The notes below the pieces were generated by a model, which saw only the letters and a list, made by a program, of their open reading frames with translations, did not search any database and was not told where the DNA came from. The position numbers were made by a program, and so were the translations under genes. Positions 9,426 through 47,024 of a stretch of 57,166 bases of DNA are shown piece by piece. Source of the stretch: an uncultured virus (IMG/VR IMGVR_UViG_3300005977_000003) (Adnaviria > Zilligvirae > Taleaviricota > Tokiviricetes > Ligamenvirales); IMG/VR virus record IMGVR_UViG_3300005977_000003; one strand, given 5' to 3'. Every line of letters starts with the position of its first letter. Within the stretch, counting starts at the first letter, position 1.

Positions 9426-9427
9426 AA

Positions 9428-11709: not shown

Positions 11710-11711
11710 TC

Positions 11712-28519: not shown

Positions 28520-29170
28520 TGGCGTGCGTGTGTGTGTGTGTAACACACACACATACGCCCAGTTTTTTTACTTAACATGGGCAAGTTTAACGTACTTGCC
28601 CTAACGCCACTCCTCCTAGGGGTGGGAAGGAGGGAAGGGGAGTTAGCGTTAAAAACGACCCCCCACGCCTAGGAGGAGAGTGGCGACCTCTGGAGGGCGG
28701 ACGGGGGCTCCCTCCCCCGTCGGGCACCTCCGGCGGCTGTGAAGCGGGGGTCCGATGAACCACCCCCCGGTGCACAGCGACCAGGGGAGGGCTCTCGCTG
28801 AGAAGCCGACCGTGCTTGGTGTTCAACGCCAAGTTCACGGCGGCAATGGGAGGGATCGGGCTAGCCCTTTTGCCGGGCGGCCCTTCGCCCTCGAGCCCCC
28901 CGCAAGAGGGTGCACGGGCAACCGTGCACCCTCCCCACTTTTTTCAAGTGGCTGGGGGGCTAAGCCCCTCTCTAATGGCAGGGGCAACCGGCGACGGGAA
29001 ACCCCTGCCAGATGTGAAGGGGTACGTGGTCAACCCTCGCCTGTCCTCTGGAGTTTCTAGGCCCGCCGTGGACAAGCGGCAGGCCACGGGTGCCCCACCC
29101 AAGCTCCCTGGTAAGGGGGCAAACCCCGAACTAGGGAGGCGAGGATGAAGCGGCGGGCCATAACGGGGAG
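28520..29170 (+). ncRNA. candidate large structured ncRNA (GC-rich island)
   Basis: Abrupt GC rise; many perfect stems and GNRA loops on the + strand; CTTTAAAT TATA-like box near 28490. Confidence 0.55.
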
Positions 29171-29173
29171 AAC

Positions 29174-29425
29174 GTGAGCAGGAGTCAACAGATACAAAGA
29201 ATCCTCCGCCAAATAAAGGCGGAGGACCAAGCCCTCCTCCGTGAGATCGCGGAGGAGCAGAAGGTGAGGGCTAAGTCCCTCACCCAACAAGAACTCTATC
29301 CCCTCCTCGCAGAGGAGGGTATAGAGTTGATAGGGGGGCGACTTTACGTCCCCCTATCGTGGGTCGCCGTTGTAAGGCGGCCCAGTATAAGGAATACCCT
29401 AGCCCTCATACCGAGGGCTAGGTGA
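29174..29425 (+). CDS. hypothetical protein
   Basis: 83 aa; GGGGAG upstream; stop followed by the cassette motif. Confidence 0.5.
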   Translation: MSRSQQIQRILRQIKAEDQALLREIAEEQKVRAKSLTQQELYPLLAEEGIELIGGRLYVPLSWVAVVRRPSIRNTLALIPRAR

Positions 29426-29442
29426 TTTTTCGGGGAAGGAAG

Positions 29443-29625
29443 ATGGTGGAACAGGCAAACATAATTCAGTTCTGCCCGGAATGTGGGCAAACATTGTTTA
29501 GAGTGGATAAAGACTACCTAGAATTTAGACCATGCGTTCATTATGCATGGTACGGTAGTTTGGGGTCTATAGGTAACGACGAAATATGGACGAATGGATT
29601 GAGAATTCGTTTATTAAAGAGATAA
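29443..29625 (+). CDS. family A small Zn-binding protein
   Basis: CPECG...PCVHYAW; start reassigned to the ATG after the motif. Confidence 0.65.
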   Translation: MVEQANIIQFCPECGQTLFRVDKDYLEFRPCVHYAWYGSLGSIGNDEIWTNGLRIRLLKR

Positions 29626-29644
29626 CTTTTTTCCGGGGATAGAA

Positions 29645-29770
29645 ATGAGTACCAAGATGTTTCCGTGCCTCTGGGGGCATGACCCCCAGAGGTGCGGGAC
29701 TTGTAGAAGGTGGTGCCTACCCCATGGAAGGTGTAACTTCCATGGGAATTATACTCGTTGGCCTCCATAA
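29645..29770 (+). CDS. 41-aa Cys/His-rich peptide (not in ORF track)
   Basis: MSTKMFPCLWGHDPQRCGTCRRWCLPHGRCNFHGNYTRWPP fills the gap between two motifs exactly. Confidence 0.45.
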   Translation: MSTKMFPCLWGHDPQRCGTCRRWCLPHGRCNFHGNYTRWPP

Positions 29771-29788
29771 ATTTTTCCGGGGATCCGT

Positions 29789-30127
29789 ATGAAAGTGAGA
29801 CTACAGGAATCAGGGGCACTAGGAATCTTACGATGCCCAACGGACAATAAGACGTTGTTGACCTTCAACAATGACGATGTTATTTTAGAGGACTGTGAAC
29901 ATTACCACTGGCATTTAGGTCCTGATGAAGGAGAGATCAACAAGAAAGACGAGAGGGGTGATGAAGAAGACGGTGAGGAGGAAACTGAAGAGGAAGACGA
30001 GGAGGGCGAGGAACTAGACGAACAAGATTGGTTTGAGATATTGAGACAGAACTATATTGCCGCCGTTAGCGTCGAAGGGACAAAGTTTTATCTAATACCG
30101 GTTAAAAAGGCAATGGAGAAAGGCTAA
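29789..30127 (+). CDS. family A protein with acidic insert
   Basis: RCPTD...DCEHYHW, poly-E/D tract. Confidence 0.65.
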   Translation: MKVRLQESGALGILRCPTDNKTLLTFNNDDVILEDCEHYHWHLGPDEGEINKKDERGDEEDGEEETEEEDEEGEELDEQDWFEILRQNYIAAVSVEGTKFYLIPVKKAMEKG

Positions 30128-30144
30128 CTTTTTCGGGGAGGAAG

Positions 30145-30423
30145 ATGGCAACCCAAACGGATATATTAGTTATACTATATCCTAACAATGGAAATGATAT
30201 AGAAGGTGTTTTTATATTAGATCCTTATGATGGAAAATTTGGCTTTTATAAGGCTACAACGTTAGAGGAGGTTAGACAAATTTTAAGGGAGAAACTGCCC
30301 TTTTGTTCGCAGTGGCATTCTCCAATTATACATGGTAGAGCGATTATCATAGATTGGAAGGATCTACCTTCCACTTTACAGGTTATACAAACTCCGAAGG
30401 ACATTGAAAAGTTATTAAGTTAA
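30145..30423 (+). CDS. hypothetical protein
   Basis: 92 aa, follows the motif. Confidence 0.6.
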   Translation: MATQTDILVILYPNNGNDIEGVFILDPYDGKFGFYKATTLEEVRQILREKLPFCSQWHSPIIHGRAIIIDWKDLPSTLQVIQTPKDIEKLLS

Positions 30424-30482
30424 TTTTTCAACGTTTTAATAAGAAGGTTATTTATGTAATCTAACTTTTTCCGGGGATAAAG

Positions 30483-30725
30483 GTGTGGGACGATAAAATG
30501 TTTAGAAGCTTAATCATCACAAAGACCTGTCCGCAGTGCGGACAGGAACTAATGAAAATAAGTGAGGAAGGAGATATACAGTTTCTGCCATGCGATCATT
30601 ACAAATGGTGGTTCCTTATTGCAACAAAGGAAGGTAGGGACGAGTTACAGATATCGGCAGGAACCTTCAAGGTTAGAATCAGGCTCTGGAAGAGAGAACT
30701 TAGCGAGCTTCAAGATAAGACTTAG
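30483..30725 (+). CDS. family A small Zn-binding protein
   Basis: CPQCG...PCDHYKW. Confidence 0.65.
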   Translation: MWDDKMFRSLIITKTCPQCGQELMKISEEGDIQFLPCDHYKWWFLIATKEGRDELQISAGTFKVRIRLWKRELSELQDKT

Positions 30726-30756
30726 GATTGGAAAAGGTAATTTTTCGGGGATAAGA

Positions 30757-31146
30757 ATGAAGATAACTCTAGAAGGTGAAAAATGGACGCCATACATAAG
30801 GTGTCCTGTTGACGGAACAGAGATACTGGTTGCACATGGTGACAATATTATTCTGCAGGACTGCGAACATCTGCATTGGCTTTATCCTGATGACCCTAGT
30901 GAACCTCCAGAGAAAACTAATAATGTCGACGAAGTGGATGAATATGCTAACTTTGATGACTTTTTGAAAAGAAGGTATATCACCACCATTATGACTGGGC
31001 AAAGAAAGCTTTATCTAGTGTGGTTTGTTGACAGACCGGCAGAAGGCGGTTTTGCTGTTCGAGATGGGCGCTTACCGCATGATGGTAGAATGCAGTGGGT
31101 TTTCTTCCTACCACCAGGTTTTCAAGATAACTTACCAACCCAGTAA
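30757..31146 (+). CDS. family A protein
   Basis: RCPVD...DCEHLHW; start reassigned after the motif. Confidence 0.65.
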   Translation: MKITLEGEKWTPYIRCPVDGTEILVAHGDNIILQDCEHLHWLYPDDPSEPPEKTNNVDEVDEYANFDDFLKRRYITTIMTGQRKLYLVWFVDRPAEGGFAVRDGRLPHDGRMQWVFFLPPGFQDNLPTQ

Positions 31147-31162
31147 TTTTTCGGGGATCAAG

Positions 31163-31681
31163 ATGGAGAAATGGGTGAACGAGCTGAGAAATCTTGAATT
31201 TCCAGAGTACAAGAAAGTGTTAGATGAGAAGATAGAAGAGGCTACAGTTTCTTCTAATGGTTACGTTGACTACTACAGGACTTTAATCTATTCCATCGCC
31301 GTCAATACCCTGAATAGAATGCCAAGGAATATCTACCAAGCTCTAAGGGATGAGTATGGAGATAGAGAACCTGTAATACTCGACGACGATGCGGACCCCC
31401 TAGTGGACTTGCTAGTTGAGAAACTACTTATGTATATTGACGTAAAGAGGTCAGGGGTTAAAGGAAAGGCAGAGATAAAGTTCAAGCAGGGAAACTGGTA
31501 TAAGATACAGGTTATTGTTGATATTCCTAGGAAGATAGTGCACGATGAATACGTTAAGTTCTTCGAGGATTACGTATGTGGAAACGAAACTGAATGGAAC
31601 TACAGAGAGGATGGAGTTGTCAACGATCACGAGATCTTCCTTACGAAGAAGGAACTAAGGAGATATAGGAGAATCTGTTAA
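31163..31681 (+). CDS. family B hypothetical protein
   Basis: VDIPRKIVHDEYVKFFE..C..ETEW...FLTKKELRRY; paralog of 34682 and 39778. Confidence 0.65.
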   Translation: MEKWVNELRNLEFPEYKKVLDEKIEEATVSSNGYVDYYRTLIYSIAVNTLNRMPRNIYQALRDEYGDREPVILDDDADPLVDLLVEKLLMYIDVKRSGVKGKAEIKFKQGNWYKIQVIVDIPRKIVHDEYVKFFEDYVCGNETEWNYREDGVVNDHEIFLTKKELRRYRRIC

Positions 31682-31713
31682 TCCACTTTCGTGATTTCTT
31701 TTCGGGGATAAGA

Positions 31714-32007
31714 ATGAAAAGAGAGGAGATAATTGAGCTGGTAAATAAAATTAACAATAATCCTAAGAGGTTGAAGAGAGGTCTTTACCCGTTGGAATAT
31801 AAGGACGACGGATTTAGAATAGTTTTTAGCGTTTACTTGAAACGATTTGCCTTCCTTCCAGAGGGTAAGTTGCTCTTGGAGGAGGCGATACTAGATTATG
31901 ACTTCAAAGGGATGTACTACTGGATCCCTTACGGTGAAATACCAAAAGGGTTCACCACACCAGCAATCAAATTGTCCACACTACACGATGAAGATAAGAA
32001 GGAGTAG
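31714..32007 (+). CDS. family C hypothetical protein
   Basis: LYPLEYKDDGFRIVF...YYWIPY..IPKGFTTPA. Confidence 0.65.
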   Translation: MKREEIIELVNKINNNPKRLKRGLYPLEYKDDGFRIVFSVYLKRFAFLPEGKLLLEEAILDYDFKGMYYWIPYGEIPKGFTTPAIKLSTLHDEDKKE

Positions 32008-32026
32008 CTTTTTCGGGGGTTTGTGT

Positions 32027-32311
32027 ATGAAAAAAGAGAAGATAATCAATTTGGTAAACAAAATTAACGCCAGCCCGGAAAGGATAAGGAGACGTCTCTA
32101 CCCGTTAGAGTACAAGGACGACGGTTTTAGGATTGTCTTCGAACCATATTTAGAACAGTTTATGTTTCTTCCTGAGGGAAAGCTCCTCAGGAAGAAAGCG
32201 ATCAAGGATTGGGATTCTAGAGGAATCTATTACTGGATACCATATCGCAAAATACCAAAAGGCTTCACTACACCTGCACTCCGGTTGGCTAAGTTACGTG
32301 AAGGTAGATAA
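32027..32311 (+). CDS. family C hypothetical protein (tandem paralog)
   Basis: Same motifs as the 31714 ORF; start reassigned after the motif. Confidence 0.65.
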   Translation: MKKEKIINLVNKINASPERIRRRLYPLEYKDDGFRIVFEPYLEQFMFLPEGKLLRKKAIKDWDSRGIYYWIPYRKIPKGFTTPALRLAKLREGR

Positions 32312-32329
32312 CGTTTTTCGGGGATAGAA

Positions 32330-32506
32330 ATGGTGGCAAGAATGGAGATTGTCAGGTGTGAGTACGATGGCGAACCGTTGCTAGCTATATCACTCGACGG
32401 AACGGTTTACCTTTGGAAATGCGAACACCATCAATGGCATCTGGAGAACGACGGTAAGTTTAATCGCAATGGAGTAGGAATATTAAGGATGATCAATAAG
32501 GTGTGA
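32330..32506 (+). CDS. family A protein, 58 aa (not in ORF track)
   Basis: MVARMEIVRCEYDGEPLL...KCEHHQW. Confidence 0.6.
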   Translation: MVARMEIVRCEYDGEPLLAISLDGTVYLWKCEHHQWHLENDGKFNRNGVGILRMINKV

Positions 32507-32522
32507 TTTTTCGGGGATAGAA

Positions 32523-32705
32523 ATGTCGGAAGATCTAAGAATAATATGGGCCTGCCCAGAATGTGGGCAGTACTTAATTAATGAGGCTAAAGAAGGAATT
32601 TTCTTCCAGAATTGCGAACATTTTGAATGGTGGACTAACCTGAGAAAATTAAGTATTGATGAATTAAAAACAAAGGGTATCCAACTACTACTTTCGAAAA
32701 GGTAA
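32523..32705 (+). CDS. family A small Zn-binding protein
   Basis: CPECG...NCEHFEW. Confidence 0.65.
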   Translation: MSEDLRIIWACPECGQYLINEAKEGIFFQNCEHFEWWTNLRKLSIDELKTKGIQLLLSKR

Positions 32706-32723
32706 TTTTTCGGGGGATATAAG

Positions 32724-33263
32724 ATGGAGGATCTGAAGATTGAGGTAGGTGTGAAGGATGATAAGTACCCCTATCTAGATGACAAGAACATTAACTTAAC
32801 CAATCTTAGAGGAGTGAGGGGAAGGCTTATCTACCTTTCCGCAAGGCTTATTAACGCTAATACTGTCACTTTAAAGAGGTTGAACGAGTTTGCCGCTAGG
32901 CTCGATAACGCCAAGATTGCGAAGACAGAGAAGGGGACGTTGGTTGTCAAGTATGAGGATGGATCAACCCTTTATCTGGTGGAAATTCCATCAGGCTATA
33001 GGGGTAGCGTTAACGTTGAGGTGGTTAATGGCGACTGCCAAATCTCTGAGGTGCTAACCTCGCCAAGAGGGTCACTGGGTGAGATTAAGCACGTATGGTG
33101 CAACGGTAATGCCGTAATAAAGTACAAGATCACAGGTAGGACTAGTACTGTTGGTTATGGGAAATTGAGGAATTTATATGGTGAGAATCTAGAGGGTACA
33201 GTGACCGTTGAGGGAGGGAAGGTTAGTGTCGTCTTTGACGAGGAATTGGACAAGTTGATCTAA
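32724..33263 (+). CDS. hypothetical protein
   Basis: 179 aa between motifs. Confidence 0.6.
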   Translation: MEDLKIEVGVKDDKYPYLDDKNINLTNLRGVRGRLIYLSARLINANTVTLKRLNEFAARLDNAKIAKTEKGTLVVKYEDGSTLYLVEIPSGYRGSVNVEVVNGDCQISEVLTSPRGSLGEIKHVWCNGNAVIKYKITGRTSTVGYGKLRNLYGENLEGTVTVEGGKVSVVFDEELDKLI

Positions 33264-33279
33264 TTTTTCGGGGATAAGT

Positions 33280-34164
33280 ATGAATACGTTTGAAATTAAT
33301 GATGGCAATCACAAATATATCCTCACAGGAAAGACGCTAATAGATGACACAATTCTAATAGAATTTAGGATAGAGGGTAATCTGTGGGACTGCCTGAAGA
33401 CTTACCCGTGGTATTTTGGTGTAACAAATTTTGAGGAACTTGTGAATCTCGATAAAGATGAAATTATTGAGATAATCGAGAGGCAATTCAATGAAAAATA
33501 TTTCTACCCAATGCCATACGAACAGGTTAGGAAATATGTTAAAACGCTTATCAAAAACACCATCGAATCTATAGACGTTGCAATTGATCATGTGAAGAAT
33601 AAGATTCCAGATTTCACATCCCTGATCAAAAATGTTACCTCGATTAGTAGTATATTTGATGGTAAGGTAAAATTAGTACTGGATGAGGAACACGACAAGC
33701 TATCTGAGTATTATTCTCTGATAACGACGGACGCTGGGCACATGCCCGTTCCTATATTTATGCAATACCTCGAGGTAGGGGTCAGGAGCGACGAGGACAA
33801 GATAAGTATTTTAAAGAATGTATTGTACTTCATCAAAGGATACGATGAAAAGATACCAGAGGAAAGGAGGGACTGGGAATCTGAGCTAACTGATGACGTG
33901 AGGGGGGCGAAGTCAGAGCTATTTCAAAAAGCAGTAGTGCTGTACAATAAATTGCCCGAGGAAAAGAGGTACCCTGTTGATGATGAATATTATTCCTATG
34001 AGTGTCCGGAGGACTCCTTGCCAGATGGTATAGGTTACTGCAGGAATTTCTACTATGAGGACTTGATGAAGAAGACCGAGGAAGAGTTAGCAAACGAGAT
34101 CATAGAATCACTTACCAAGATAAGGGAAAAGATGTTAAGTTTGAAAGAATACTACGATGGTTAA
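33280..34164 (+). CDS. acidic hypothetical protein
   Basis: 294 aa between motifs. Confidence 0.6.
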   Translation: MNTFEINDGNHKYILTGKTLIDDTILIEFRIEGNLWDCLKTYPWYFGVTNFEELVNLDKDEIIEIIERQFNEKYFYPMPYEQVRKYVKTLIKNTIESIDVAIDHVKNKIPDFTSLIKNVTSISSIFDGKVKLVLDEEHDKLSEYYSLITTDAGHMPVPIFMQYLEVGVRSDEDKISILKNVLYFIKGYDEKIPEERRDWESELTDDVRGAKSELFQKAVVLYNKLPEEKRYPVDDEYYSYECPEDSLPDGIGYCRNFYYEDLMKKTEEELANEIIESLTKIREKMLSLKEYYDG

Positions 34165-34188
34165 ATTATTTTTTAATCGGGGATAAAA

Positions 34189-34503
34189 ATGCAACCCAAC
34201 GAGGAAACGAATAAATTGATCACGGAATTCATCGAACTTTTCTTCAGAAATTACGTTAAAGAATTCAATGTTAAGTTCGACGAATTACAGGTACTACTTA
34301 ATGAAGACGAATTTAAAGAATTGATAGGTGAATACGACAGTAGTAACGGTGCAATTAATGACGGAGTTTACACCGACGAATATGTGTACGATATTGACGA
34401 TGTTAATATGAAGAAACTGATAATTGACTATATGAAGACAGATGACGGAGAATACGTAATACTGTCAATACAAGGATTTGACGACGTGAAACCGACAAAC
34501 TAA
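34189..34503 (+). CDS. acidic DUF1374/AcrID1-like protein (candidate anti-CRISPR)
   Basis: F.N..KE....FD...V.....EF..L...Y.DEY...LIIDY......VI pattern and size resemble AcrID1 as recalled from memory. Confidence 0.5.
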   Translation: MQPNEETNKLITEFIELFFRNYVKEFNVKFDELQVLLNEDEFKELIGEYDSSNGAINDGVYTDEYVYDIDDVNMKKLIIDYMKTDDGEYVILSIQGFDDVKPTN

Positions 34504-34521
34504 TCTTTTTCGGGGATGAAC

Positions 34522-34620
34522 ATGGGAATATTAAGGATAATAAGACTAAGAATAAGGCTACTAAGACTAAGGTTGAGACTACTTAGGATGAGACTGTGGA
34601 AGCTGAGACCGTTGGTGTAA
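34522..34620 (+). CDS. 32-aa Arg/Leu-rich peptide (not in ORF track)
   Basis: MGILRIIRLRIRLLRLRLRLLRMRLWKLRPLV, directly after a motif. Confidence 0.45.
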   Translation: MGILRIIRLRIRLLRLRLRLLRMRLWKLRPLV

Positions 34621-34681
34621 TGCGGAGAAAAGCGAACATTTTTTCGGGGATGGAGGAGTAACGTTTCTTCGGGGATCAGTA

Positions 34682-35215
34682 ATGGAAGAGGTATTGTGGG
34701 TTAACGAAATAAGGGACGTCGGATTTCCAGAGTTCGACAAAGTAATAAAGGAGATGATAGAGGCAGACACCACAGGATACAGAGTCTGTTTTGCAGACTA
34801 CCAATGGATGTTAATTCATTCCATTGTATTGAATACTATAAACAGCTTACCAAAACCTATCTATCAGGCCATGATATCCAAATACAACGATGACGAATAT
34901 ATAATACGTGCGTTAAGTAGACGACTACTTAGGAGATTACAGATAAAGAGAAACGGAGCTAAAGGAAAGGTGACGATGAGGGTTAAAGGGGATAAACCGT
35001 ATAAACTGAGAATAGTTGTTGACATCCCTAGGAAGGTACTACACGACAAATATGTCGAGTTTTTCGAGAAATACGTTTGCGATAATGAAACGGAGTGGTG
35101 CTACTGTAGGGGGGAGGGTGAAGTTCTTGACCACGAGGTCTTCCTTACGAAGAAGGAGTTAAGGAAGTATAAGCGAATGTGTGAATCCACTTGTGTAGAT
35201 TTCATACCCTATTAG
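34682..35215 (+). CDS. family B hypothetical protein
   Basis: VDIPRKVLHDKYVEFFE..C..ETEWCYC. Confidence 0.65.
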   Translation: MEEVLWVNEIRDVGFPEFDKVIKEMIEADTTGYRVCFADYQWMLIHSIVLNTINSLPKPIYQAMISKYNDDEYIIRALSRRLLRRLQIKRNGAKGKVTMRVKGDKPYKLRIVVDIPRKVLHDKYVEFFEKYVCDNETEWCYCRGEGEVLDHEVFLTKKELRKYKRMCESTCVDFIPY

Positions 35216-35261
35216 CGTCCATCTAGTAATTCTAATAGGTCAAGATTTTTCGGGGATTGAG

Positions 35262-35558
35262 ATGGGAGTTGAAAGGGCAATACACACCTTACAGGATGGA
35301 CAGGAGGAGAGCTTGTACTGTAAGATGTGCTACGAAGAGTTGTCCAGGGAGTTCTATAACGATAGTGGTATACAAGTGCTCCTTAGGGTGAACGACTGTG
35401 AACATTACCAGTGGATTTTTGTGGGGGATCCGTTTTTGGATCCCCCATGGGATGTGGTGACAAGGGAGATCATTAACAATGCCGTTGCTAAGGTGGACGC
35501 AAGTGGTGGCAAGTATTTCCTCCTACCAAGAAGTCTGGCTGAGAGGTATTCGAATTGA
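35262..35558 (+). CDS. family A protein
   Basis: CKMC...DCEHYQW...LDPPWD...KYFLLPRS. Confidence 0.65.
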   Translation: MGVERAIHTLQDGQEESLYCKMCYEELSREFYNDSGIQVLLRVNDCEHYQWIFVGDPFLDPPWDVVTREIINNAVAKVDASGGKYFLLPRSLAERYSN

Positions 35559-35575
35559 TTTTTCGGGGAAAGAAG

Positions 35576-35869
35576 ATGGCTGTGAAGTGGATAGTGGAGA
35601 ACGAAGAGAATGGACAGCTAGGAAAGTTCTACTGTACAATATGTAAGCAAGATCTGTCTAGAGTATTCTATACCTGGGGAGGTGCCTACCAGTTTCTCGG
35701 TGTTTACGATTGCAAACACTATGAATGGGTCTTCGTAGGGGACTACGACTTGGATCCCCCATGGGATGAGGAGACAAAGAAGATTGTAGAGAATTCCCTA
35801 GGATCCGTTGTGGAACAGCACGGTAAGTACTTCCTTCTACCAAGGAGTTTTGTAGACAGGTACAAGTAA
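35576..35869 (+). CDS. family A protein
   Basis: CTIC...DCKHYEW...LDPPWD...KYFLLPRS; start reassigned after the motif. Confidence 0.65.
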   Translation: MAVKWIVENEENGQLGKFYCTICKQDLSRVFYTWGGAYQFLGVYDCKHYEWVFVGDYDLDPPWDEETKKIVENSLGSVVEQHGKYFLLPRSFVDRYK

Positions 35870-35889
35870 CAAATTTTTCGGGGGTCAGC

Positions 35890-36408
35890 ATGTTATACCC
35901 TACTTTCAATGAGAAAGGTATACCCAACAAAAAGTTGATGTTAAACGTGGACAGAGATGGGGTATTACTGGTGGATGGGGAGAAACTGATAACATTAACT
36001 GTGAGCTATAAGGGGGTGGTGAAGGCGGTTATGAAAAACCTGGTGTTCAAACCCGAATTGATAGCAGGAGGGAGAATAGAAATAGAGGATGTGAACTACG
36101 ATATGGATGGTCTTATACGTTTCCTATCCACGGCATCATATCAAGTGTTTGGTTCTGAAAAGGCGTTAATTGCAATGTTATACAAGAAGGTCTTCAAGGA
36201 TAAAGTGTACACATTTTACGCTATAGTACCAAAACCCACAGGAGAACTCCTCCCTAATTACGTCGTGCAGGAAATGGTGAAGGGGGAGAAGAGGTACTAT
36301 ATCATGTACACTGGACTTGGAATGTTTGGAATAGTCAGTAACGTTGAAGGTGGAAAAGGAATAATAAGGAAGATTAACAAAACCTTTAGTGTGTGGGTGT
36401 ACAAATGA
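35890..36408 (+). CDS. hypothetical protein
   Basis: 172 aa, follows the motif. Confidence 0.6.
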   Translation: MLYPTFNEKGIPNKKLMLNVDRDGVLLVDGEKLITLTVSYKGVVKAVMKNLVFKPELIAGGRIEIEDVNYDMDGLIRFLSTASYQVFGSEKALIAMLYKKVFKDKVYTFYAIVPKPTGELLPNYVVQEMVKGEKRYYIMYTGLGMFGIVSNVEGGKGIIRKINKTFSVWVYK

Positions 36409-36647
36409 TCGAGATAAGGAATATTCTATTACGTGAGAAACCCACGATACTCAAAGTTATCTCTGAGGATGGAAGGGTAATACTTGTGATGAATAAGGAG
36501 AGGCATAGGTTAATCTCGACACTGGAAGAGGTGGAGGAAACCTTGGAGGGTTTGAGGAAGATTGGTGTTCTACAGGACTTCATGGTTGTTGAAAGGTTTG
36601 ATGCGGAGACAAGTAGTTGGAGGACTTACAGGCTTAAGTGGTTGTGA
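36393..36647 (+). CDS. hypothetical protein
   Basis: 84 aa, overlaps the upstream gene. Confidence 0.55.
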   Translation: MGVQMIEIRNILLREKPTILKVISEDGRVILVMNKERHRLISTLEEVEETLEGLRKIGVLQDFMVVERFDAETSSWRTYRLKWL

Positions 36648-36665
36648 TTTTTTCGGGGTGATAGA

Positions 36666-36872
36666 TTGGTAAAAATAATAAGGATAACGGTTAAAGAGGG
36701 CGAAACAAAGGTTGACTACATTGGTTATGAGGGAAAGCAGTGTGACGCCGCTGATGATAGGTTTAGGAGTAGCCTAAGGAAGATAACGGGTTTTGAAGTG
36801 GTGGAGAGGAGGAATAAGCCAGAGTATTACGAGGGTGAGGGCAGTGAGAATATGCTTAGGAGTGAGGAGTGA
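36666..36872 (+). CDS. DUF2997-like small protein
   Basis: G.TKVD..G.EG..C......L......KPEYY pattern; next to an AAA ATPase. Confidence 0.6.
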   Translation: MVKIIRITVKEGETKVDYIGYEGKQCDAADDRFRSSLRKITGFEVVERRNKPEYYEGEGSENMLRSEE

Positions 36873-37004
36873 CGAGTGCGATGCCTTAGTTTACGATGGT
36901 TATGCGGTTGTGAATACGAACGTTGACGCAAAGAAGTTGGCAAAGATGTTGGGGTCGGATGAAAAGGCAATAAGCCCGTGCGGATAACTTTTTCGGGGAT
37001 CGAG

Positions 37005-38519
37005 ATGCACTGGTATGATAAGATAACCGGTTATGTTAAGAATAAAATTAGTAACGTCGGAGTGGTTGTCACGGATGATATTTACAGGCTTTACGAGTTA
37101 ATTAACATCACGAGGGATAGGAAGGAGGACGTGTGTTTTGTGGATTTACAGCAGGGTGATCTCGATAACCACAGTTTTACCATTTTCAGTGGTAGTACTG
37201 CGAGTAGGCAAACGCTTAATAGCGACACACATGCGGACTTCCTCTACAACCTATCGAGTAGGTGTACCGTCGTTTTGAAGTGGGTGGTAAATAAGTCGTT
37301 GGCTGACAGGCTTGAACCCATTATCTTCTCTCTACACTCCAACATCGACATGTATGACGACAGGATGAGGAATAGACATCCGGTACTCGTATTTAGCGTT
37401 AGTTACTTCTGGAATATCATTGACCTTGCCAGTGTTGAGGTGAACCCCACGGATGAGGAGTACGAACAACTACTACAGCAGGCGAAAAAGGTTTACGAGT
37501 ATACCCACAAGAGCGAGGTTGTTTTACCAAGTAGTGACGTGGTAAAGGGGCTTAACCTATGGACAGCACAGGGTGTCCTAAGGAACTCCATAGTTGTTGA
37601 GAAGGGTAAGGTGACTTTTGACAGTGACAAGATTAACGACTTTAAGAAGGAGATATTCCATAAGGCTGGTATTACCCTAATAAAAAGCGACATTAACTTC
37701 GAGTTTGTTGGAGGGCAGAGGTTACTGAAGGAATACGTTAGGAATAAGTGGAAGAGTATACTTAACCACCCAGAGGAGGCAATGGAGTATGGTGTCAGGT
37801 TGCCTAGGGGTATGATACTTCATGGTCCACCAGGTACAGGAAAGACTTGGTTCGTTAAGGCGTTGGCAGGCGAGTTAAACTTGCTAATGCTACAGATTAA
37901 TGCCGCAGACATTTTTAGTAAGTGGGTGGGAGAGTCGGAACAGAAGCTGAGGATGTTGACGAAGTACGCAGACATCACGAGGGCTGTCCTGTTCATAGAT
38001 GAGCTAGACGCATTAGCCTCCAAGAGGACGTCGGAAGAACATGAGGTTAGTAGGAGGGTTAAAAACATGTTTTTAGAGTGGCTTGGTGACGCTAACAGAA
38101 AGGCAATCGTGATAGGGGCGACCAACATGTTACAGGAGTTGGACGAGGCGTTCACTAGACCAGGAAGGTTTGATGATATACTACCAGTATCCTACCCCAA
38201 TAGGGAGGACTTAAAGGAGATATTCGGTGTACACATTTATAAGTACAACCCCATCAAACACGTTGACAAACTTGACATGGATAGGATTGCGGAGAGGGCG
38301 TATGGGTACTATTTGAAGCCTAACGAGGTTGAAAAGGTGGTACACAATGCGAAATTGAAGGCTTTCCTAAGTAAGGGAAAGCTTACGACTGAGATAATAT
38401 TGGAGGAGATAGACGAGGTAGGTAAGACTGTCAACGTTTCAGAGAGGTCGAGGTATATGAACGAGTATGAGAAGAAGGAGAAGGAGTTGTTAAGTAGCGT
38501 TAATACGAGGTGGTTCTAA
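37005..38519 (+). CDS. AAA+ ATPase (Ycf46/CDC48-like)
   Basis: GPPGTGKT, SKWVGESE, FIDELD, GATN, RPGRFD; start reassigned after the motif. Confidence 0.9.
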   Translation: MHWYDKITGYVKNKISNVGVVVTDDIYRLYELINITRDRKEDVCFVDLQQGDLDNHSFTIFSGSTASRQTLNSDTHADFLYNLSSRCTVVLKWVVNKSLADRLEPIIFSLHSNIDMYDDRMRNRHPVLVFSVSYFWNIIDLASVEVNPTDEEYEQLLQQAKKVYEYTHKSEVVLPSSDVVKGLNLWTAQGVLRNSIVVEKGKVTFDSDKINDFKKEIFHKAGITLIKSDINFEFVGGQRLLKEYVRNKWKSILNHPEEAMEYGVRLPRGMILHGPPGTGKTWFVKALAGELNLLMLQINAADIFSKWVGESEQKLRMLTKYADITRAVLFIDELDALASKRTSEEHEVSRRVKNMFLEWLGDANRKAIVIGATNMLQELDEAFTRPGRFDDILPVSYPNREDLKEIFGVHIYKYNPIKHVDKLDMDRIAERAYGYYLKPNEVEKVVHNAKLKAFLSKGKLTTEIILEEIDEVGKTVNVSERSRYMNEYEKKEKELLSSVNTRWF

Positions 38520-38539
38520 ACTTTTTTCGGGGTGAAGGC

Positions 38540-38911
38540 ATGTCCCACATAGTGAAGATAAACTTAAGTTTAAACATTAACGATAAGCAGGCTGTACTAC
38601 AGGCGTTGACTAAAATGGGTGTGAAGATATCGAGCGAACATAAGGTTAGCGACTATTACGGTAAGGTTACAACTGTCAGTGACGGATTAATCTCGTTTAA
38701 TGTGAAGGGTAGATGGTTTACGCTGGATAAGAATGGCAATCTCATTGGCGATACCTATGGTCTAGGCGAATTACCGATAAACACTATCAAGTTTGCCGTG
38801 TTACTTGCGGCAACGATGAAGAATGGAGGAAGGGTTAAGAAGGTTGAGATGATTGGTGATGGATGGACGGCTGACGTGGAGGACACGGTGGAGGAGAAGT
38901 TTGCGGCTTAA
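38540..38911 (+). CDS. DUF1257/Ycf35-like protein
   Basis: MSH....I.D...L.AL..MG...D.YG pattern; follows the ATPase. Confidence 0.55.
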   Translation: MSHIVKINLSLNINDKQAVLQALTKMGVKISSEHKVSDYYGKVTTVSDGLISFNVKGRWFTLDKNGNLIGDTYGLGELPINTIKFAVLLAATMKNGGRVKKVEMIGDGWTADVEDTVEEKFAA

Positions 38912-38941
38912 GCAAGTAGACTAATTTTTCGGGGAAAGAAG

Positions 38942-39757
38942 ATGGAAAGTCGTGGTGCTTTTAACATACAATATCTACAAACTTATGTAGTTTTTTCAAG
39001 CCCACCGTTGTTGAGATTTTACATGGATGGGCTTGATGATCAAAGGCTTAATCAAGTGTGGGATAAGTTGAAGGAGATAACGAATAAGTACTCGCCGAAA
39101 CTGACGTATAACGACTTGATGATAATAAGTAGGAATAGGAGTGGTTATAGGGTGGACTTAATATTAATGGATAAGAGAACGCTACTGGATTATGGGAACC
39201 TGAAGTCCGAGGTGAAGAGGTGGCTTGCCAAGAATGCGTTAGCCCTACCTGCAAGAATAATCACCATCTTTCTTTTGCCTGAGGCTTCAGAGGGGAACTA
39301 CATTCGGATGCTGGATCAGGTAAACAAATCTGTGGACGAGTTAAACGAAAGGCTAAAGCAGTATTATGAGAGTAATGACTTTAGGGAATTGATTGATACG
39401 ATAGACAGGGTGAGGGATAAGAGAAGGGAAACGGTATACGAGAGAATGTACATCAACAAACCCAGGGTTTACTTGAACAAGATCGTTTACGAGATTGTAC
39501 CAGGTTCTCCGACTGAAAAGTACGTTAGGGAGACGTTAAGGCATGAGATTGAAACCTTCCTCATAAGCACCATTAAGATGAATGGGAACATTAAGAGTAT
39601 GGACTTATTTAGGAGGAAGGTGTTGACACAGGTAGAGAAGTTGGAGATCATGACAGGTCTTAATGGGTTAAAGGACGATGTGGAGAAGGTACTGGTAACT
39701 AAGGACATTGAGGTGCTTAAGAAGTCCCTAGGAGATGTAGTGAATAGGTGGATTTGA
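38942..39757 (+). CDS. hypothetical helical protein
   Basis: 271 aa between motifs. Confidence 0.6.
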   Translation: MESRGAFNIQYLQTYVVFSSPPLLRFYMDGLDDQRLNQVWDKLKEITNKYSPKLTYNDLMIISRNRSGYRVDLILMDKRTLLDYGNLKSEVKRWLAKNALALPARIITIFLLPEASEGNYIRMLDQVNKSVDELNERLKQYYESNDFRELIDTIDRVRDKRRETVYERMYINKPRVYLNKIVYEIVPGSPTEKYVRETLRHEIETFLISTIKMNGNIKSMDLFRRKVLTQVEKLEIMTGLNGLKDDVEKVLVTKDIEVLKKSLGDVVNRWI

Positions 39758-39777
39758 ACCCTTTTTCGGGGATCGAA

Positions 39778-40275
39778 ATGGGTGAAGACGTAAAGAAGAT
39801 TGTGATCACGAATGTGGATTGGAATGCTTACTTGGAGATAGAACGTGGTTCCTTACAGGGCGACTTTATGACTCAGTCGTGTGATAGTGACTTTCTTGAC
39901 ATGGTGGCTTACACCTTAGCCAACCAAGCCCTTCCACATGGAAATACCATCAAGCTATCCGATGAGATAAAGGAGGCTTTCAGGAAGACAGAGTACGGCA
40001 ATGACTTCAAGTTTAGTAAACTGTTGGTTATTGAGAAAGAGGGTAAAACGAATAAGTACCTCTTGGAGATACAAATACCTTGGGATGTTATGCACGACAA
40101 GTTTATAGCGTTTATGGAGAGGATACAGGAGAGTTGGTGGCAATTATGTTACTGCCGTTTCAATCCAGGATCCTTCCCAGAGGGTGCCGACTACAACGTG
40201 TTACTGAATGAGGAGGAGAGGGAGAGATATAGATACGTTTGCGAGGAGGGAAGATTGGAGAAGAGGTGGTTGTAA
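39778..40275 (+). CDS. family B hypothetical protein (divergent)
   Basis: IQIPWDVMHDKFIAFME...LCYCR...VLLNEEERERYRYVC. Confidence 0.6.
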   Translation: MGEDVKKIVITNVDWNAYLEIERGSLQGDFMTQSCDSDFLDMVAYTLANQALPHGNTIKLSDEIKEAFRKTEYGNDFKFSKLLVIEKEGKTNKYLLEIQIPWDVMHDKFIAFMERIQESWWQLCYCRFNPGSFPEGADYNVLLNEEERERYRYVCEEGRLEKRWL

Positions 40276-40292
40276 CTTTTTCGGGGATGGAA

Positions 40293-40751
40293 ATGAGTGA
40301 TGAATCCGTGGTAGTATACGAGGAAGACACTTGGGGTACACACGGGCAACATAAGAAGAAAATGTTGTTTATCGTGGACTTAAAGGAGAGGACACAAAAG
40401 GCGTTGTGGACTTTCTCTGGTGTTGAGTGGGTGAATAACGACTCAAGTAAGAATAGGCATAGGAAGGCGTTGATGGATTACAAACAACTACAAGGTTTGA
40501 TGATTGGTGATAGGTTACTGAAGGTGGTGACAGATCATAAGTCCTCCAGTAGGAGGGAGATAACAACGAGTTACTACACGATGATTGATGGTAAACTAGT
40601 GGAGATACCTAGCAAAAACGTGAGGGTGGATGGTAAGTTTTACGATCTAGTCGAGTATAACAACGTTAAGGTTTACACGAATAAGGATGAGGTGAGGATA
40701 GACCCATCGAACCTACCGGAGGAGAAGAAGGTGGAGAAGAGGTGGTTGTAA
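40293..40751 (+). CDS. hypothetical protein
   Basis: Start reassigned after the motif; ends in EKRWL like the previous gene. Confidence 0.6.
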   Translation: MSDESVVVYEEDTWGTHGQHKKKMLFIVDLKERTQKALWTFSGVEWVNNDSSKNRHRKALMDYKQLQGLMIGDRLLKVVTDHKSSSRREITTSYYTMIDGKLVEIPSKNVRVDGKFYDLVEYNNVKVYTNKDEVRIDPSNLPEEKKVEKRWL

Positions 40752-40869
40752 CTTTTTTCGGGGATGGAGACACGTGGTAGAATGTAGAACAGACATCCTC
40801 GTTCATTACTAGTGAAAATATATCAAATTGCCTAACTAAATTTTTCAGTGATGTGAGACGAAGGCAAGA

Positions 40870-41139
40870 ATGGAAGGAGTTGGTGTGTCAGGATATTTAC
40901 GCTGTGAGTTTGACGACAAAACCCTACTGGAGTTTGACGAGTACACCGTTACCATTCAAGACTGCCCACACTACCGATGGTATCCTGCTCCGGAAGTTCA
41001 GGTTGAGGAAGGGATACACACAGAAGATGAGGAGGAGGAAGAAGAAAGCTGGGAACAGTTTTTAGAGAGAGCCCACGTTGCATCCATTAATGTACAAGGA
41101 GGAAAATACTACTTGGTACGAATGGAACAGGTAAGCTAA
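40870..41139 (+). CDS. family A protein with acidic insert
   Basis: RCEFD.KTLL...DCPHYRW...poly-E...KYYLV; similar to 29789. Confidence 0.65.
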   Translation: MEGVGVSGYLRCEFDDKTLLEFDEYTVTIQDCPHYRWYPAPEVQVEEGIHTEDEEEEEESWEQFLERAHVASINVQGGKYYLVRMEQVS

Positions 41140-41150
41140 CTTTTTCGGGG

Positions 41151-41381
41151 ATGGAGATGCAAGTGGAGATATATGAGTATGGTTTTAGGGTTAATAATGG
41201 AGATGAAAGCCTCTTCTTTCAGAGAGGACCGGAAGACGGCTTAGTCGTCGTTTACTATGAGAGGAATCTGGAGATGGTGGATGTGATGTACATACCTCTT
41301 GATAGGTATGGGGTGGAGAGTTTTGATGAGCTACAGAAGGTAGTGACGAGGAATCCTGAAATAGCCTGGAGACCAATGTAA
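41151..41381 (+). CDS. small acidic hypothetical protein
   Basis: 76 aa, follows the motif. Confidence 0.55.
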   Translation: MEMQVEIYEYGFRVNNGDESLFFQRGPEDGLVVVYYERNLEMVDVMYIPLDRYGVESFDELQKVVTRNPEIAWRPM

Positions 41382-41397
41382 AACAACTGACCGGGGG

Positions 41398-42324
41398 TTG
41401 TCAATGTACGAGGAAGAACACGAATTTGGATCACCAAAGGTGGTTGACGAGAGGAATGAGGTGACTTACAATAGATACGGTGACCACTACATCAGGACTG
41501 TAACCACACGTAGGTTAATAGCATACAGGTGTAGAATTTGTGGTTACGAGGAGGTGGAGGAGGAAAAGGAGGTATATGATGAGGAGGTGGACATTATATC
41601 GATTGATGGTATACCGTATTTGTTGAAACACAATCAGCTAAGTCCGTTAGAAAGATTGAATACTCCTCCACCTAAGGCGGAGTTGGAATACGTTAGTGTA
41701 TACAATTACTACATTCCCGTGAATTTTATTGATGAGGAGGTTATGAGTAGGGTTGAGGAATTAGTGAATGAGGTTGAGGAATTGGACAAGCGGATACGGT
41801 ACATTAACGATTATGACGTTTACCTCACAAAACTGGGAAGGTTGGCAAAGAAGGTGACGAATGAGATTAAGGAATACGACTCACAACACGATCTGCTATA
41901 TGTTACGGAGGAGGCATACTATGTACTGGAGGATGGGACAAGTTTGACGAAGGAGATCGTTGAGTATAGGAAGTATAGATGCAGGAAACGCTCCTTTCAA
42001 ACAGAAGAGGGAGAGTGGGCACCCCAAGAGGAGTGTGAATCTATGGTGAAGGAGGTTGTTGAATCACATGACTACGGTGAGATACCGACGTACAAGACAG
42101 ACTTTTACATCAACTACCAAAAACAAAAAGATAGCCTAATGCGGACAATGAAGGGATTGCTACAGCAAATGGTTAGGAATAAAGTGAGGGTTGACGTGCA
42201 GAAGGTTGGCGAGAGGGTGAAGATAAAGGTTGACAACGACGAAGGAGAGTTCATGTACAATTGGATAGACAGAGCTAACTATTACAGAGGTAAATACGGC
42301 CCACTTGCAATGTTATTTGTATAA
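41398..42324 (+). CDS. hypothetical protein with CxxC
   Basis: 308 aa; CRICG, coiled-coil segment. Confidence 0.6.
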   Translation: MSMYEEEHEFGSPKVVDERNEVTYNRYGDHYIRTVTTRRLIAYRCRICGYEEVEEEKEVYDEEVDIISIDGIPYLLKHNQLSPLERLNTPPPKAELEYVSVYNYYIPVNFIDEEVMSRVEELVNEVEELDKRIRYINDYDVYLTKLGRLAKKVTNEIKEYDSQHDLLYVTEEAYYVLEDGTSLTKEIVEYRKYRCRKRSFQTEEGEWAPQEECESMVKEVVESHDYGEIPTYKTDFYINYQKQKDSLMRTMKGLLQQMVRNKVRVDVQKVGERVKIKVDNDEGEFMYNWIDRANYYRGKYGPLAMLFV

Positions 42325-42356
42325 TCTTTTTCGGGGGCACAGAGAAATATAGCTGA

Positions 42357-42952
42357 TGTAATACACAGGATGACCCATTCCTTCAATCTGCTGTTAGCAT
42401 CAATACTTTTGTAATACACAGAATATTGTCTGCCCATTAGATAGTCGTATGTAATAAACATGGTCCTTGCCGCATAGTAGTAGGAAAGCTGTAATACACA
42501 TTATACTTCTTGTATAACATTAACAAGGATGTAATAAACATCGGCTTGACTTGTCATATAGCATTAGCTTTATTGTAATACACAAGATAAATTGTGCATA
42601 GCATGAGTCAGAATGTAATGTACATAATAATGTTTGTATAGTAGTGCTGTATAGCAATGGGAACGGTGTAATACACATAAAAATTTCTGCATAGCATTAA
42701 CTAGGATGTAATACACATAATAATCGTTGTACAACAGTATTGAGAATGTAATACACAGAAGGTTATCTGTAGAGTATTACCGTTATTGTAATACACATTA
42801 GAACCGTTGCATAGCAGGTGTCTTATTGTAATATACATGATGTCTTCTGTAAAACACATACCGCGATGAAATAGTCAGAAAAGATCATGTAAAGCAGGTA
42901 GACCTCTGTAACGCTCAAACACGATACTGCCACACTATCCTTGAAATACTCA
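42357..42952 (+). repeat. TIGR-like dual-repeat guide RNA array (about 14 units, 40-nt period)
   Basis: TGTAATACACA-type repeats start at 42357, 42410, 42450, 42490, 42530, 42574, 42614, 42667, 42707, 42747, 42787, 42827, 42867, 42907, 42942; most units continue with 10 variable nt, a 9-nt TGYAWARCA-type repeat and 10 more variable nt; no ORF. Confidence 0.88.
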
Positions 42953-42977
42953 ACCTGTGCCCTCTCGGGGATAAAAG

Positions 42978-44036
42978 ATGAAGGAGGATAAACTACAACT
43001 ATACGTTAACGGAAGAGAGACCATTCAGAGGGCTAGAATTGTCTATGGTAATATGATAGGGGCAAAACGTGAGGGTGGTAAATGGAAGTTTGTGAGGTAC
43101 TATAGCCTTTGTGAGAATAAGCACAAAGTCTTCCTGAAGGAGGGTGAGAAACGTGAGGTATGCCCAATCTGTAAACAGAAGGTTGTAATATATCAGGAAG
43201 AACCAGACGAAATGTTGATTGAAGTTTTCGAGAAGATTGATAAGGAGATAATAAAGTTGCTGGAGGCGGAAATCTCAAAGAATGTTACGGAGTATGCTGA
43301 GTGGCAAAACTTCCTTGTCTTTGTTAAGGGTGTTGGGCCAACTATTTCCGCTGAACTAGTTAGTATCTTACCACCGGAAAAGTTTAATTGGAATTTGGCA
43401 AAGCTAAAGTCTTACGCAGGAATAGGGATTGCTGGGGTTTGTGAGAAGGACAACTACCTAGTTTACGGTTCGCAGGCTTATAAGGACAGGAAACCTGTGG
43501 ATAATAAGCCGTTGAATGGTAATTGCCCATACTGCGGTAATCCGTTAAAGTGGAGGGCTGTGAATAAGGCAGACCCAGTAAAGTATCACAGACAGGCAAA
43601 GGCACTTCTAACCTACAAGCTAGCCACTAGCTTAATGAAGGCAAAGGGAGTGTACTACCAACTCTACCTCAAGTTCAAGGAGGAGATTTCGAAGAAGCAT
43701 CCAGACTGGAATAAGGCAAAGGTTAACATGACTGCTGTGAGAAAGATGTTAACGGTCTTCTTAACTGTCTATCTTTCAATCTCATACTCGATAACGCATA
43801 ACGTGGACTACAAAACCGCTTTAGTACACGTTTTAGGAGAGAAAGAATACAACATTTTGAGGAATCACAAGGACTTTATCGACTTCCCACTATTCGACGA
43901 TCTCATCGACACTAAGAGGAAGACAATGAAGGTGAATCAAACGGTAAAGAAGACACTGGAAAGACTGGGTCTGGATGAGGGCGATTTGAACAACATGGTT
44001 ATCTTCCACCAGAAACAACTGAAACAAGAGGATTGA
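42978..44036 (+). CDS. IS110/Nop-domain RNA-binding protein, TasA-like, with Zn-ribbon inserts
   Basis: VKGVGPTISAELV...LAKLKSYAGI and YYQLY...AVRKMLTVFL match the IS110 C-terminal/Nop fold; no N-terminal DEDD RuvC visible; C..H/CPIC and C..D/CPYC; directly downstream of the array. Confidence 0.8.
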   Translation: MKEDKLQLYVNGRETIQRARIVYGNMIGAKREGGKWKFVRYYSLCENKHKVFLKEGEKREVCPICKQKVVIYQEEPDEMLIEVFEKIDKEIIKLLEAEISKNVTEYAEWQNFLVFVKGVGPTISAELVSILPPEKFNWNLAKLKSYAGIGIAGVCEKDNYLVYGSQAYKDRKPVDNKPLNGNCPYCGNPLKWRAVNKADPVKYHRQAKALLTYKLATSLMKAKGVYYQLYLKFKEEISKKHPDWNKAKVNMTAVRKMLTVFLTVYLSISYSITHNVDYKTALVHVLGEKEYNILRNHKDFIDFPLFDDLIDTKRKTMKVNQTVKKTLERLGLDEGDLNNMVIFHQKQLKQED

Positions 44037-44071
44037 AGAGGATGAAGGTAGATTTTTTATCGGGGATGAAC

Positions 44072-44356
44072 ATGTTACTAGTAATAAAAGAGAGGAAATA
44101 CAAACCTGGTCTGTCCTACCAGGTAGGACTGGAGGAGGTTGTTGAAAACTATCTAAACCCGTCCTTACGTAGAAAGAGAAAACCATACTACTCCTACTTA
44201 GACACGAACGAGGTGTTTTACCAACGAATGGAGGTTTATGATGGAGGAAGACTTCTCATGGAGTATAACGGTGATAAGCTAACCTTCTACGACAAAAAGT
44301 TTGAGGAGGAATTCAAGAGGGTGTTGGAGAGGAAAAAGATGGGGGTGGCAAAATGA
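44072..44356 (+). CDS. hypothetical protein
   Basis: Start reassigned after a motif variant near 44053. Confidence 0.55.
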   Translation: MLLVIKERKYKPGLSYQVGLEEVVENYLNPSLRRKRKPYYSYLDTNEVFYQRMEVYDGGRLLMEYNGDKLTFYDKKFEEEFKRVLERKKMGVAK

Positions 44357-44694
44357 ACGTAAGTATAAGCGTTGATAATGAAACTTTTGAAAAGATTAAA
44401 TTACTCGCAGACAGGATCGGAGTAAACAGGTCACAACTGATACGGATGATACTACAAGAGGTTTTTGGAGTGAAACACTACAACAACTTTCTCTCCATCT
44501 TACCAAGTAACAACAGTACGACGAGACTGATTGAGAAGTGTGTTGTTGACCCTGAGTGTAAGGCAATCGACCTAAAACAACAAAAAGTGTATGTGACGAA
44601 CGGGCTACTGTGGAGGGACTTGGAGAACGTGAAGGTTGAGGAGGGCAATGTTGTGATACCAATCAATGGTAGGTTAATCTACGTTATTACATGA
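44353..44694 (+). CDS. CopG/ribbon-helix-helix regulator with C-terminal domain
   Basis: VSISVD.E....I..LA...GVNRSQLIR. Confidence 0.75.
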   Translation: MNVSISVDNETFEKIKLLADRIGVNRSQLIRMILQEVFGVKHYNNFLSILPSNNSTTRLIEKCVVDPECKAIDLKQQKVYVTNGLLWRDLENVKVEEGNVVIPINGRLIYVIT

Positions 44695-44764
44695 TTTTTT
44701 CGGGGGTCGTTTTGTGGTAAAATCCATTAGTAAAGCTTTTATCTCGTGTATAGTATAGCTATAC

Positions 44765-46914: not shown

Positions 46915-47024
46915 CTTTCTCGGGGTTCGAAGGTGGCGTAAAGATGAAGTCCAGGATAGCCACCATTTGTGTAGGAAACCTAGATCACCCAAACATTTTT
47001 TAACTTCCAGAAAAAGATAAAATC

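Follow-up and report, generated by a model that had tools for sequence, protein, structure and literature searches.

Conserved elements that lie between accessory genes and act as points of exchange have been described in T4-type phages. The passages devoted to these promoter-plus-stem-loop linkers (PeSLs) present them as conserved regulatory elements between accessory ORFans, leave the catalyst of exchange unresolved, and draw a comparison with integrons (PMC2839356, PMC4122927). In Cluster K mycobacteriophages, Start Associated Sequences (SAS) are asymmetric, stand in one orientation at the Shine-Dalgarno (SD) position and accompany non-structural genes only; they contain conserved bases unable to pair with 16S rRNA, and their function is given there as unknown (PMC3203893). 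For archaeal viruses, a further report describes, in its pertinent part, early anti-defence genes that share per-gene TATA/BRE promoters (PMC11065993). Here we consider a 10-nt linker, TTTTTCGGGG (hereafter the motif), that bounds small gene cassettes in a viral DNA stretch of 57,166 nt (IMG/VR record IMGVR_UViG_3300005977_000003; the window means this whole stretch), and at which relatives of the virus have lost, duplicated, replaced and relocated cassettes.

Cassette turnover at the linker

The relatives come from a metagenome scan that yielded 13 loci (L numbers below), 11 of them close and two at 65–67% identity in an AAA ATPase, L061 being the lineage at 67%. Sequencing runs (X numbers) contributed assembled contigs only, with one RNA run and three DNA runs used for depth. 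Among the 11 close relatives we found 20 distinct new gene-scale adjacencies, 16 of them inside the motif, with the joined blocks overlapping by ~10–21 nt; positions within 15 nt of a site make up 6.7% of the array. Two relatives (L055 and L063) are collinear with the window. Cassettes W16 and W17 are lost from L052, and an identical skip of 606 bp, with 16 letters in common, recurs in runs X1 and X9. Other losses at the motif affect W10 (L053), W27 (L053, L054 and L060), W05–07 (L057) and W13+14 (L059), while tandem paralogs stand at motif junctions in L056, L057, L059 and L060. The first cassette is replaced in L057, and the letters after position 29436 differ in X1, X8 and X9. A block of ~4.2 kb containing the ATPase has moved behind W31, to the terminal site, in L058 and L060, and in L060 the order W15-W25-W14 is found. 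One of the 16 motif adjacencies (W18-like to W20) is possibly a paralog chimera, and another, the junction of the terminal motif with Hjc in L058 discussed below, comes from a single contig. The count of 20 leaves aside a 25-nt difference in W16, small in-gene indels, spacer changes in the guide array and flank junctions, of which only the W16 difference lies at the motif. The more distant L061 retains 11 exact copies of the motif, most of the cassettes they surround being unrelated. The sequence-only reading had proposed, as one of two options, that cassettes shuffle at the motif, and had named collinear relatives with breakpoints unrelated to the motif as evidence against this; the genomes are not collinear overall and their breakpoints lie mostly at the motif, so that cassette turnover and reordering at this element is strongly supported.

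The distribution of the motif is equally distinctive. All 24 exact copies are on the + strand, from 29426 to the last at 44696–44705, and a count over the whole window found none elsewhere and none on the – strand, in keeping with the earlier remark that the exact motif was not noticed in the replication and structural modules; shuffled sequence gave a mean of 0.06 copies and never more than 1. The core CGGGG occurs 34 times on the + strand in 29100–44720 (33 listed sites plus 41392), always at a gene or array boundary and never inside coding sequence. The estimate of about 30 cassettes thus fails for the exact motif and holds once variants are counted. As had been noted, nearly every boundary reads stop codon, 0–15 nt, motif, linker, start (this distance holds at 26 of 33 sites); one CGGGG site without a T-tract, at 29164, lies upstream of the range first described. 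Four cassettes carry two genes each. The motif also brackets the guide array, with a copy at 42327 before it and the variant CCTCTCGGGG at 42961–42970 after it, and a terminal copy does close the region, its start being 44696 rather than 44695.

Several features indicate that the motif is more than a ribosome-binding site. The GGGG is positioned at SD distance, 6–8 nt ahead of starts (of 28 genes, 19 have 6 nt between CGGGG and start codon, 7 have 7 nt and 2 have 8 nt), and pairing with an anti-SD, taken from a Desulfurococcaceae 16S gene and not from the host, involves the G-run and following bases only, leaving T5C unpaired; its median energy is –5.9 kcal/mol at motif genes versus –6.55 for 34 other genes. 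When sites were aligned with those of relatives (62 alignments), identity at the ten motif positions was 94–98%, compared with 81% for third codon positions. Four sites (34640, 40754, 42327 and 44696) have no open reading frame (ORF) at SD distance and are nonetheless conserved in relatives; the terminal motif is intact in L052, L054, L058, L060, L062 and L061, after differing last genes.

Further evidence comes from the purging of CGGG from coding sequence, measured against an expectation from shuffling synonymous codons. In the window's cassettes CGGGG is absent from coding sequence (5.2 expected), whereas AGGGG and TGGGG, equally good SDs, are at expectation. Sense CGGG occurs 4 times versus 19.4 expected (rank 4 of 256 4-mers), and it is likewise scarce in the cassettes of two further viruses introduced below, ATSV (0 versus 9.1) and L068 (1 versus 7.0). 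Elsewhere in these genomes observed and expected counts are 30/38.8 (window), 13/10.1 (ATSV) and 44/48.5 (L068), and in ATSV and L068 the depletion does not extend to the reverse complement, CCCG. Such purging fits a signal that is harmful inside genes, for example a maturation cut or a crossover core. The behaviours of a T4 RegB-type shut-off nuclease and of a repressor roadblock do not fit it. The non-pairing T5C, the conserved ORF-less sites and the internal purging together bear out the earlier suspicion of a role beyond ribosome binding.

Set beside the described systems, the motif resembles PeSLs in being an element between accessory genes at which ORF indels and replacements end (PMC2839356, PMC4122927). 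As described in those passages, however, PeSLs consist of a promoter plus stem-loop and are dispersed, whereas the motif is 10 nt long, with TATA-like boxes ahead of only 4 of 32 sites (random mean 1.4) and no excess of hairpins; it stands at almost all boundaries within a single 15.5-kb run that follows a folded RNA, and the virus is archaeal. With SAS it shares asymmetry, orientation, SD position, confinement to accessory, non-structural genes and conserved non-pairing bases (PMC3203893). Its sequence is unrelated to the mycobacteriophage 13-mer, and it is therefore an analog only. SAS intergenic gaps exceed 50 bp, half have inverted repeats, and no shuffling is reported in the SAS section of that paper (PMC3203893); here stop and motif abut, ORF-less sites occur, and junctions map to the motif. 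The early anti-defence genes offer a parallel, as there too small early genes of Sulfolobales viruses carry a non-coding sequence in common; the difference is that the report, in the part concerned, describes per-gene promoters (PMC11065993). The cassettes likely belong to this class of early anti-defence genes.

Layout of the region and its parallel in ATSV

The features of the region, and others in the window that bear on it, are as follows.

28490..28495, + strand: TATA-like box TTTAAA after an AT-rich tract, identical in L052; putative promoter of the whole unit
28520..29163, + strand: GC-rich, multi-hairpin non-coding leader RNA of ~640 nt, predicted from fold, RNA-run depth and compensatory pairs
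29124..29130, + strand: CCCCGAA, reverse complement of the motif's TTCGGGG, within a stem that shows compensatory changes; no more than a lead
29164..29425, + strand: first CGGGG site (no T-tract) and ORF0 (83 aa, 29174-29425; ATG start in L052; no family found in the searches made)
29426..36648, + strand: cassettes W01-W20, small motif-bounded genes, among them a Cys/Zn-ribbon paralog family, two paralog pairs, a SIRV-related 179-aa gene and DUF1374
34640..35245, + strand: cassettes W16+W17, lost from motif to motif in L052 and also in X1 and X9
35246..39761, + strand: block W18-W24, with a 504-aa AAA ATPase (37005-38519) and small partners common to ATSV; in L058 and L060 found at the terminal site, following W31
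39762..42326, + strand: cassettes W25-W28
40754-41140, + strand: W27, degenerate
42327..42960, + strand: non-coding cassette with a TIGR-like dual-repeat array (40-nt period, ~42357-42850)
42978..44036, + strand: Tas-like protein with the motif variant ahead (NCBIfam TIGR_Tas_endo, E 9e-18, below cut-off; 39% identity to an ATSV protein)
44056..44694, + strand: last cassette, a 94-aa ORF and an RHH protein
44696..44705, + strand: terminal motif, lacking an ORF at SD distance; retained by all relatives whose sequence extends to the array end, L061 among them
50134..51009, – strand: XerA-like tyrosine recombinase, probably not the cassette enzyme
8511..9425, + strand: Sak4-like ssDNA annealing protein (PHROG 124, E 6.5e-9), candidate helper for microhomology exchange
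16928-17593: Cas4-like nuclease, candidate co-helper with Sak4

We read the window as an uncultured Sulfolobales-type virus, with a presumptive host. Its gene set includes PolB, RFC-like, Cas4-like, Hjc, 7-deazaguanine and glycosyltransferase genes and a tyrosine recombinase; genes of the motif region match SIRV rudiviruses (~50%) and ATSV and YNP1 (38–41%), and the stretch turns up mostly in hot-spring and mat sequencing runs. Motif-pattern and single-protein scans of IMG/VR found no close relatives, a further IMG/VR scan recovered only the contig of L068 (1 of 33 loci), and a GTDB search gave no close AAA relative. Of 80 distant AAA loci in GTDB, none has an array-like layout, and one (L167) has at least three AT-flanked CGGGG on one strand (four, on the opposite strand). 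No tRNA or Rfam family was matched in the searches made.

A second virus family provides a further comparison. In Acidianus tailed spindle virus (ATSV; NC_029316, ~375–14400) a GC-rich folded tract (z –9.4) is followed directly by TTTTTTCGGGG and a start codon, and 19 + strand CGGGG in 966–14353 stand mostly after T/A-rich tracts, ahead of small genes. This early region likewise holds an AAA module, a Tas protein and a repeat array, although its T-tracts are looser and its integrase is different. Of these features the database record annotates none, giving only stem-loops that lie upstream of the folded tract. Against L068, an ATSV relative from IMG/VR, there are cassette differences with several block ends at CGGGG, such as new sequence in the first position and, at 19908, a switch falling on the C itself; other ends lie away from CGGGG. 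An L068 element ending at CGGGG (8319–8648) was excluded, as we read it as an IS605-type miniature inverted-repeat transposable element. Homologs of cassette genes in YNP1 and SIRV7 use ordinary SDs. The window's XerA, Sak4, SSB, Cas4, Hjc, RHH, HTH and ORF0 have no tblastn match in the whole ATSV genome or in the examined parts of the L068 record, and the ATSV integrase does not align with the window XerA. That the same architecture exists without the window's XerA, Sak4, RHH and HTH points, on present comparisons, to a signal that predates any single enzyme.

Some cassette contents merit mention. At least eight small genes (29443–32705, 35262–35869 and 40870–41139) are Cys/His-rich, Zn-ribbon-like paralogs and candidate anti-defence proteins. 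The AAA ATPase and two small partner genes (36666–38911) are common to ATSV (41%, 46% and 34%) and L061; W24 has few relatives. The TIGR-like array and Tas-like protein (42357–44036) combine 10-nt spacers in 40-nt dual-repeat units with Cys-rich inserts in the protein, whose profile match is below cut-off. Tas-like homologs exist in ATSV and YNP1, and array spacers vary between relatives. The eight spacer pairs have no full match inside the window, and none is directed at the motif.

How the linker may act

The reading that we favour, to which we would give an even chance of being right, is that the motif is a boundary signal at the RNA level, with microhomology exchange as its consequence. 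The region would form one early accessory-gene transcription unit comprising promoter, ~640-nt folded RNA and ~33 cassettes, presumably on a single transcript. U5-CGGGG, read on the sense strand and with the C required, would be the boundary signal at which the long transcript is, most likely, cut or released; each cassette RNA would then end in a U-tract and begin with its own weak GGGG ribosome-binding site, and the guide-array precursor would be freed likewise. Because the same 10–17 bp recur in direct orientation at every boundary, motif copies could double as crossover points for microhomology recombination, perhaps via viral Sak4-type annealing or host repair. Exchange would delete, duplicate, replace or relocate whole cassettes and leave one motif per junction. 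Termination at U-tracts in archaea, annealing by Sak4 and short-homology recombination in Sulfolobus provide the background; for the last of these our literature search found no paper. Contigs of the RNA run span several motifs. One of them starts exactly at the C at 41146, which we do not take as an RNA end: contigs cannot show ends, and DNA contigs also stop at motifs.

A number of observations weigh against this reading. Four of the 20 adjacencies lie outside the motif (two coupled-gene junctions in L060 and both ends of a pre-tas insertion in L054). Selection for intact genes is a stricter null that is not fully separable: since nearly every boundary has a motif, gene-integrity selection would also concentrate surviving junctions there. 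Some ATSV/L068 junctions share only 5–9 nt, which is short for annealing. CCCG is mildly depleted in the window (10/16.7), depletion of CGGG is not significant in the arrays of L061 (4/5.6) and L060 (4/8.2), and partial depletion occurs in viruses without an array (ATV 43/64, STSV1 14/27). Finally, the RNA-run library may contain DNA, and it is represented here by assembled contigs only.

The leader itself suggests another possibility. The tract 28560–29200 folds with z = –7.0 and shows two compensatory pairs relative to L052; in the one RNA run the leader bin has a contig depth of 189 versus 7–30 in 27 of 29 other bins and 59 and 65 in the remaining two, contig depth being a poor measure of expression, and three DNA runs show no such excess. 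The folded RNA might read the motif by pairing (CCCCGA with UCGGGG) and direct cleavage, translation or strand exchange at the boundaries, which we consider unlikely. In its favour are the seeming abundance of the leader and the distribution of a 500-nt tract of at least 65% GC: all three records that show both array and leader region (window, ATSV and L068) have one, and none of the six control Sulfolobales viruses does (YNP1, SIRV7 and SMV1 as whole records; SMV3, ATV and STSV1 over their first 50 kb). The controls also show no array. In the ATSV and L068 leaders CACCCCGA lies within an unpaired loop, and the seventh base of the leader 7-mer tracks the commonest motif form (CCCCGAA/TTCGGGG in the window, CCCCGAT/ATCGGGG in ATSV). 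But each such 7-mer, chosen after the fact, is present in 6–21% of shuffles (11–14% for CCCCGAA at 29124–29130), the window's copy is predicted to be paired in a hairpin, and the L068 leader also has CCCCGAA. The cases amount to two independent lineages whose leaders are weakly similar: window against ATSV scores 99, a score that 1 of 150 4-mer shuffles attains (for L068, 3 of 150). Searching the window leader with a covariance model built on the 3′ part of ATSV's leader gave no match. Between ATSV and L068, 11 of 177 pairs are changed on both sides. The leader matched no Rfam family and no ribozyme family, and the joints listed in run contigs (15 of 23) include none from leader to body. As separate observations, the window leader, apparently abundant in the metatranscriptome, has its counterpart in ATSV at ~375–960, and just past the putative promoter (28520–28560) a near-perfect GT/AC hairpin precedes a T7 run, possibly an attenuator.

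The sequence-only reading had also raised integron-like shuffling by a nearby tyrosine recombinase. Integrons have an integrase (IntI), an attI site and attC sites, and the likeness is real: promoterless cassettes on one strand behind one promoter, gain, loss and reordering of whole cassettes, and turnover at the first position. The recombinase is present at 50134–51009 as stated, but its best match is XerA. Its match to TIGR02249 (IntI) reaches 75.8 bits versus a cut-off of 265 and is split in two stretches, and it aligns to PDB 4a8e without a long gap, hence without the integron-specific insertion. Nor do the sites resemble attC: they show no dyad symmetry, inverse core or single-strand hairpin, CCCCG lies within 160 nt of only 1 of 33, and DNA fold energy is –2.5 at sites versus –3.2 at random array positions. 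With the recombinase 5.4 kb off and absent from ATSV, the array is, as judged from these features, not an integron. A broader version seems doubtful to us: XerA or another enzyme would recombine DNA site-specifically in a dedicated system with CGGGG as the core, and excised circles would re-insert elsewhere. Scar-free junctions, the multi-kb block moved to the terminal site, new first-position cassettes in both virus groups and the ATSV/L068 switch exactly at the C would suit it, as would a junction in L058 where the terminal motif is joined 2 nt past a bare CGGGG within the Hjc gene. That junction, however, is known from one contig and is readable as microhomology; T-tract length and spacing vary in ATSV, and the joints listed (again 15 of 23) include no circle junction. 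Overall, the earlier interpretation is partly supported.

The end sequences of IS605-type elements deserve comment. The IS200/IS605 left end, a subterminal hairpin behind a T-rich G-run, is not found at array sites, which run directly into start codons; an origin of the motif from such an end, whose first 12 nt it resembles, is possible. Look-alikes occur only outside the array: a ~60-nt mini-element with both ends at 24790–24860 (–) and left-end relics at 2735 (+) and 46916 (+), the last a near-match to the motif better read as a relic.

Two readings fare worse. Stoperator-like asymmetric DNA sites, bound by a viral repressor (RHH at 44353–44694 or HTH at 44765–45085) that silences the early unit, with shuffling as by-product, would explain ~30 asymmetric, oriented intergenic copies in an integrase-bearing virus and the RHH homolog (46%) in the L061 array; neither regulator has an ATSV homolog, and fixed SD spacing and internal purging are unexpected for a roadblock, which would work within genes too, making this quite improbable. 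We would be surprised, finally, if the motif were no more than an SD joined to a U-tract terminator, multiplied as genes duplicated, with selection alone clustering the junctions. SD spacing is tight, pairing energy ordinary and many cassettes paralogous, but this reading leaves unexplained the C itself, the purging that depends on it, the conservation of ORF-less sites and the parallel in ATSV. Homologous genes of YNP1 and SIRV7 have ordinary SDs.

Further observations and significance

Elsewhere in the window, a 7-deazaguanine pathway (2905–4281 and 11299–13844: QueC with a glutamine amidotransferase domain, QueD, QueE-like radical SAM, FolE, TGT-like) suggests modified viral DNA. A basic 125-aa protein of no known family (18326–18703) is, we presume from its resemblance, possibly a DNA-coating capsid protein. 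An 811-bp absence in runs X7 and X9 (46151–46963) removes the gene at 46150–46914, and its ends are not at the motif.

Our literature searches found no description of the motif or the array; the original ATSV paper and supplementary files, either of which could mention the motif, were outside their scope. At its most general, and with low probability, a ~600-nt structured RNA and a 5-nt CGGGG tag might constitute a portable cassette platform common to unrelated Sulfolobales viruses, in which pairing of the tag processes or activates cistrons and drives scar-free excision and re-insertion without a dedicated integrase. More immediately, junctions read to the base show that, in an archaeal virus, accessory genes are gained, lost and put in new order at a defined linker of 10 nt; we otherwise found Botstein-type linker shuffling with such elements documented only for bacterial phages. 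The internal purging of CGGG implies a sequence-specific activity in Sulfolobales or their viruses that was not known before. ATSV, which shares the layout, is in culture, so direct tests of the question are possible there. The tag also flags ~30 candidate early anti-defence genes per genome, which promoter-based single-gene screens miss.

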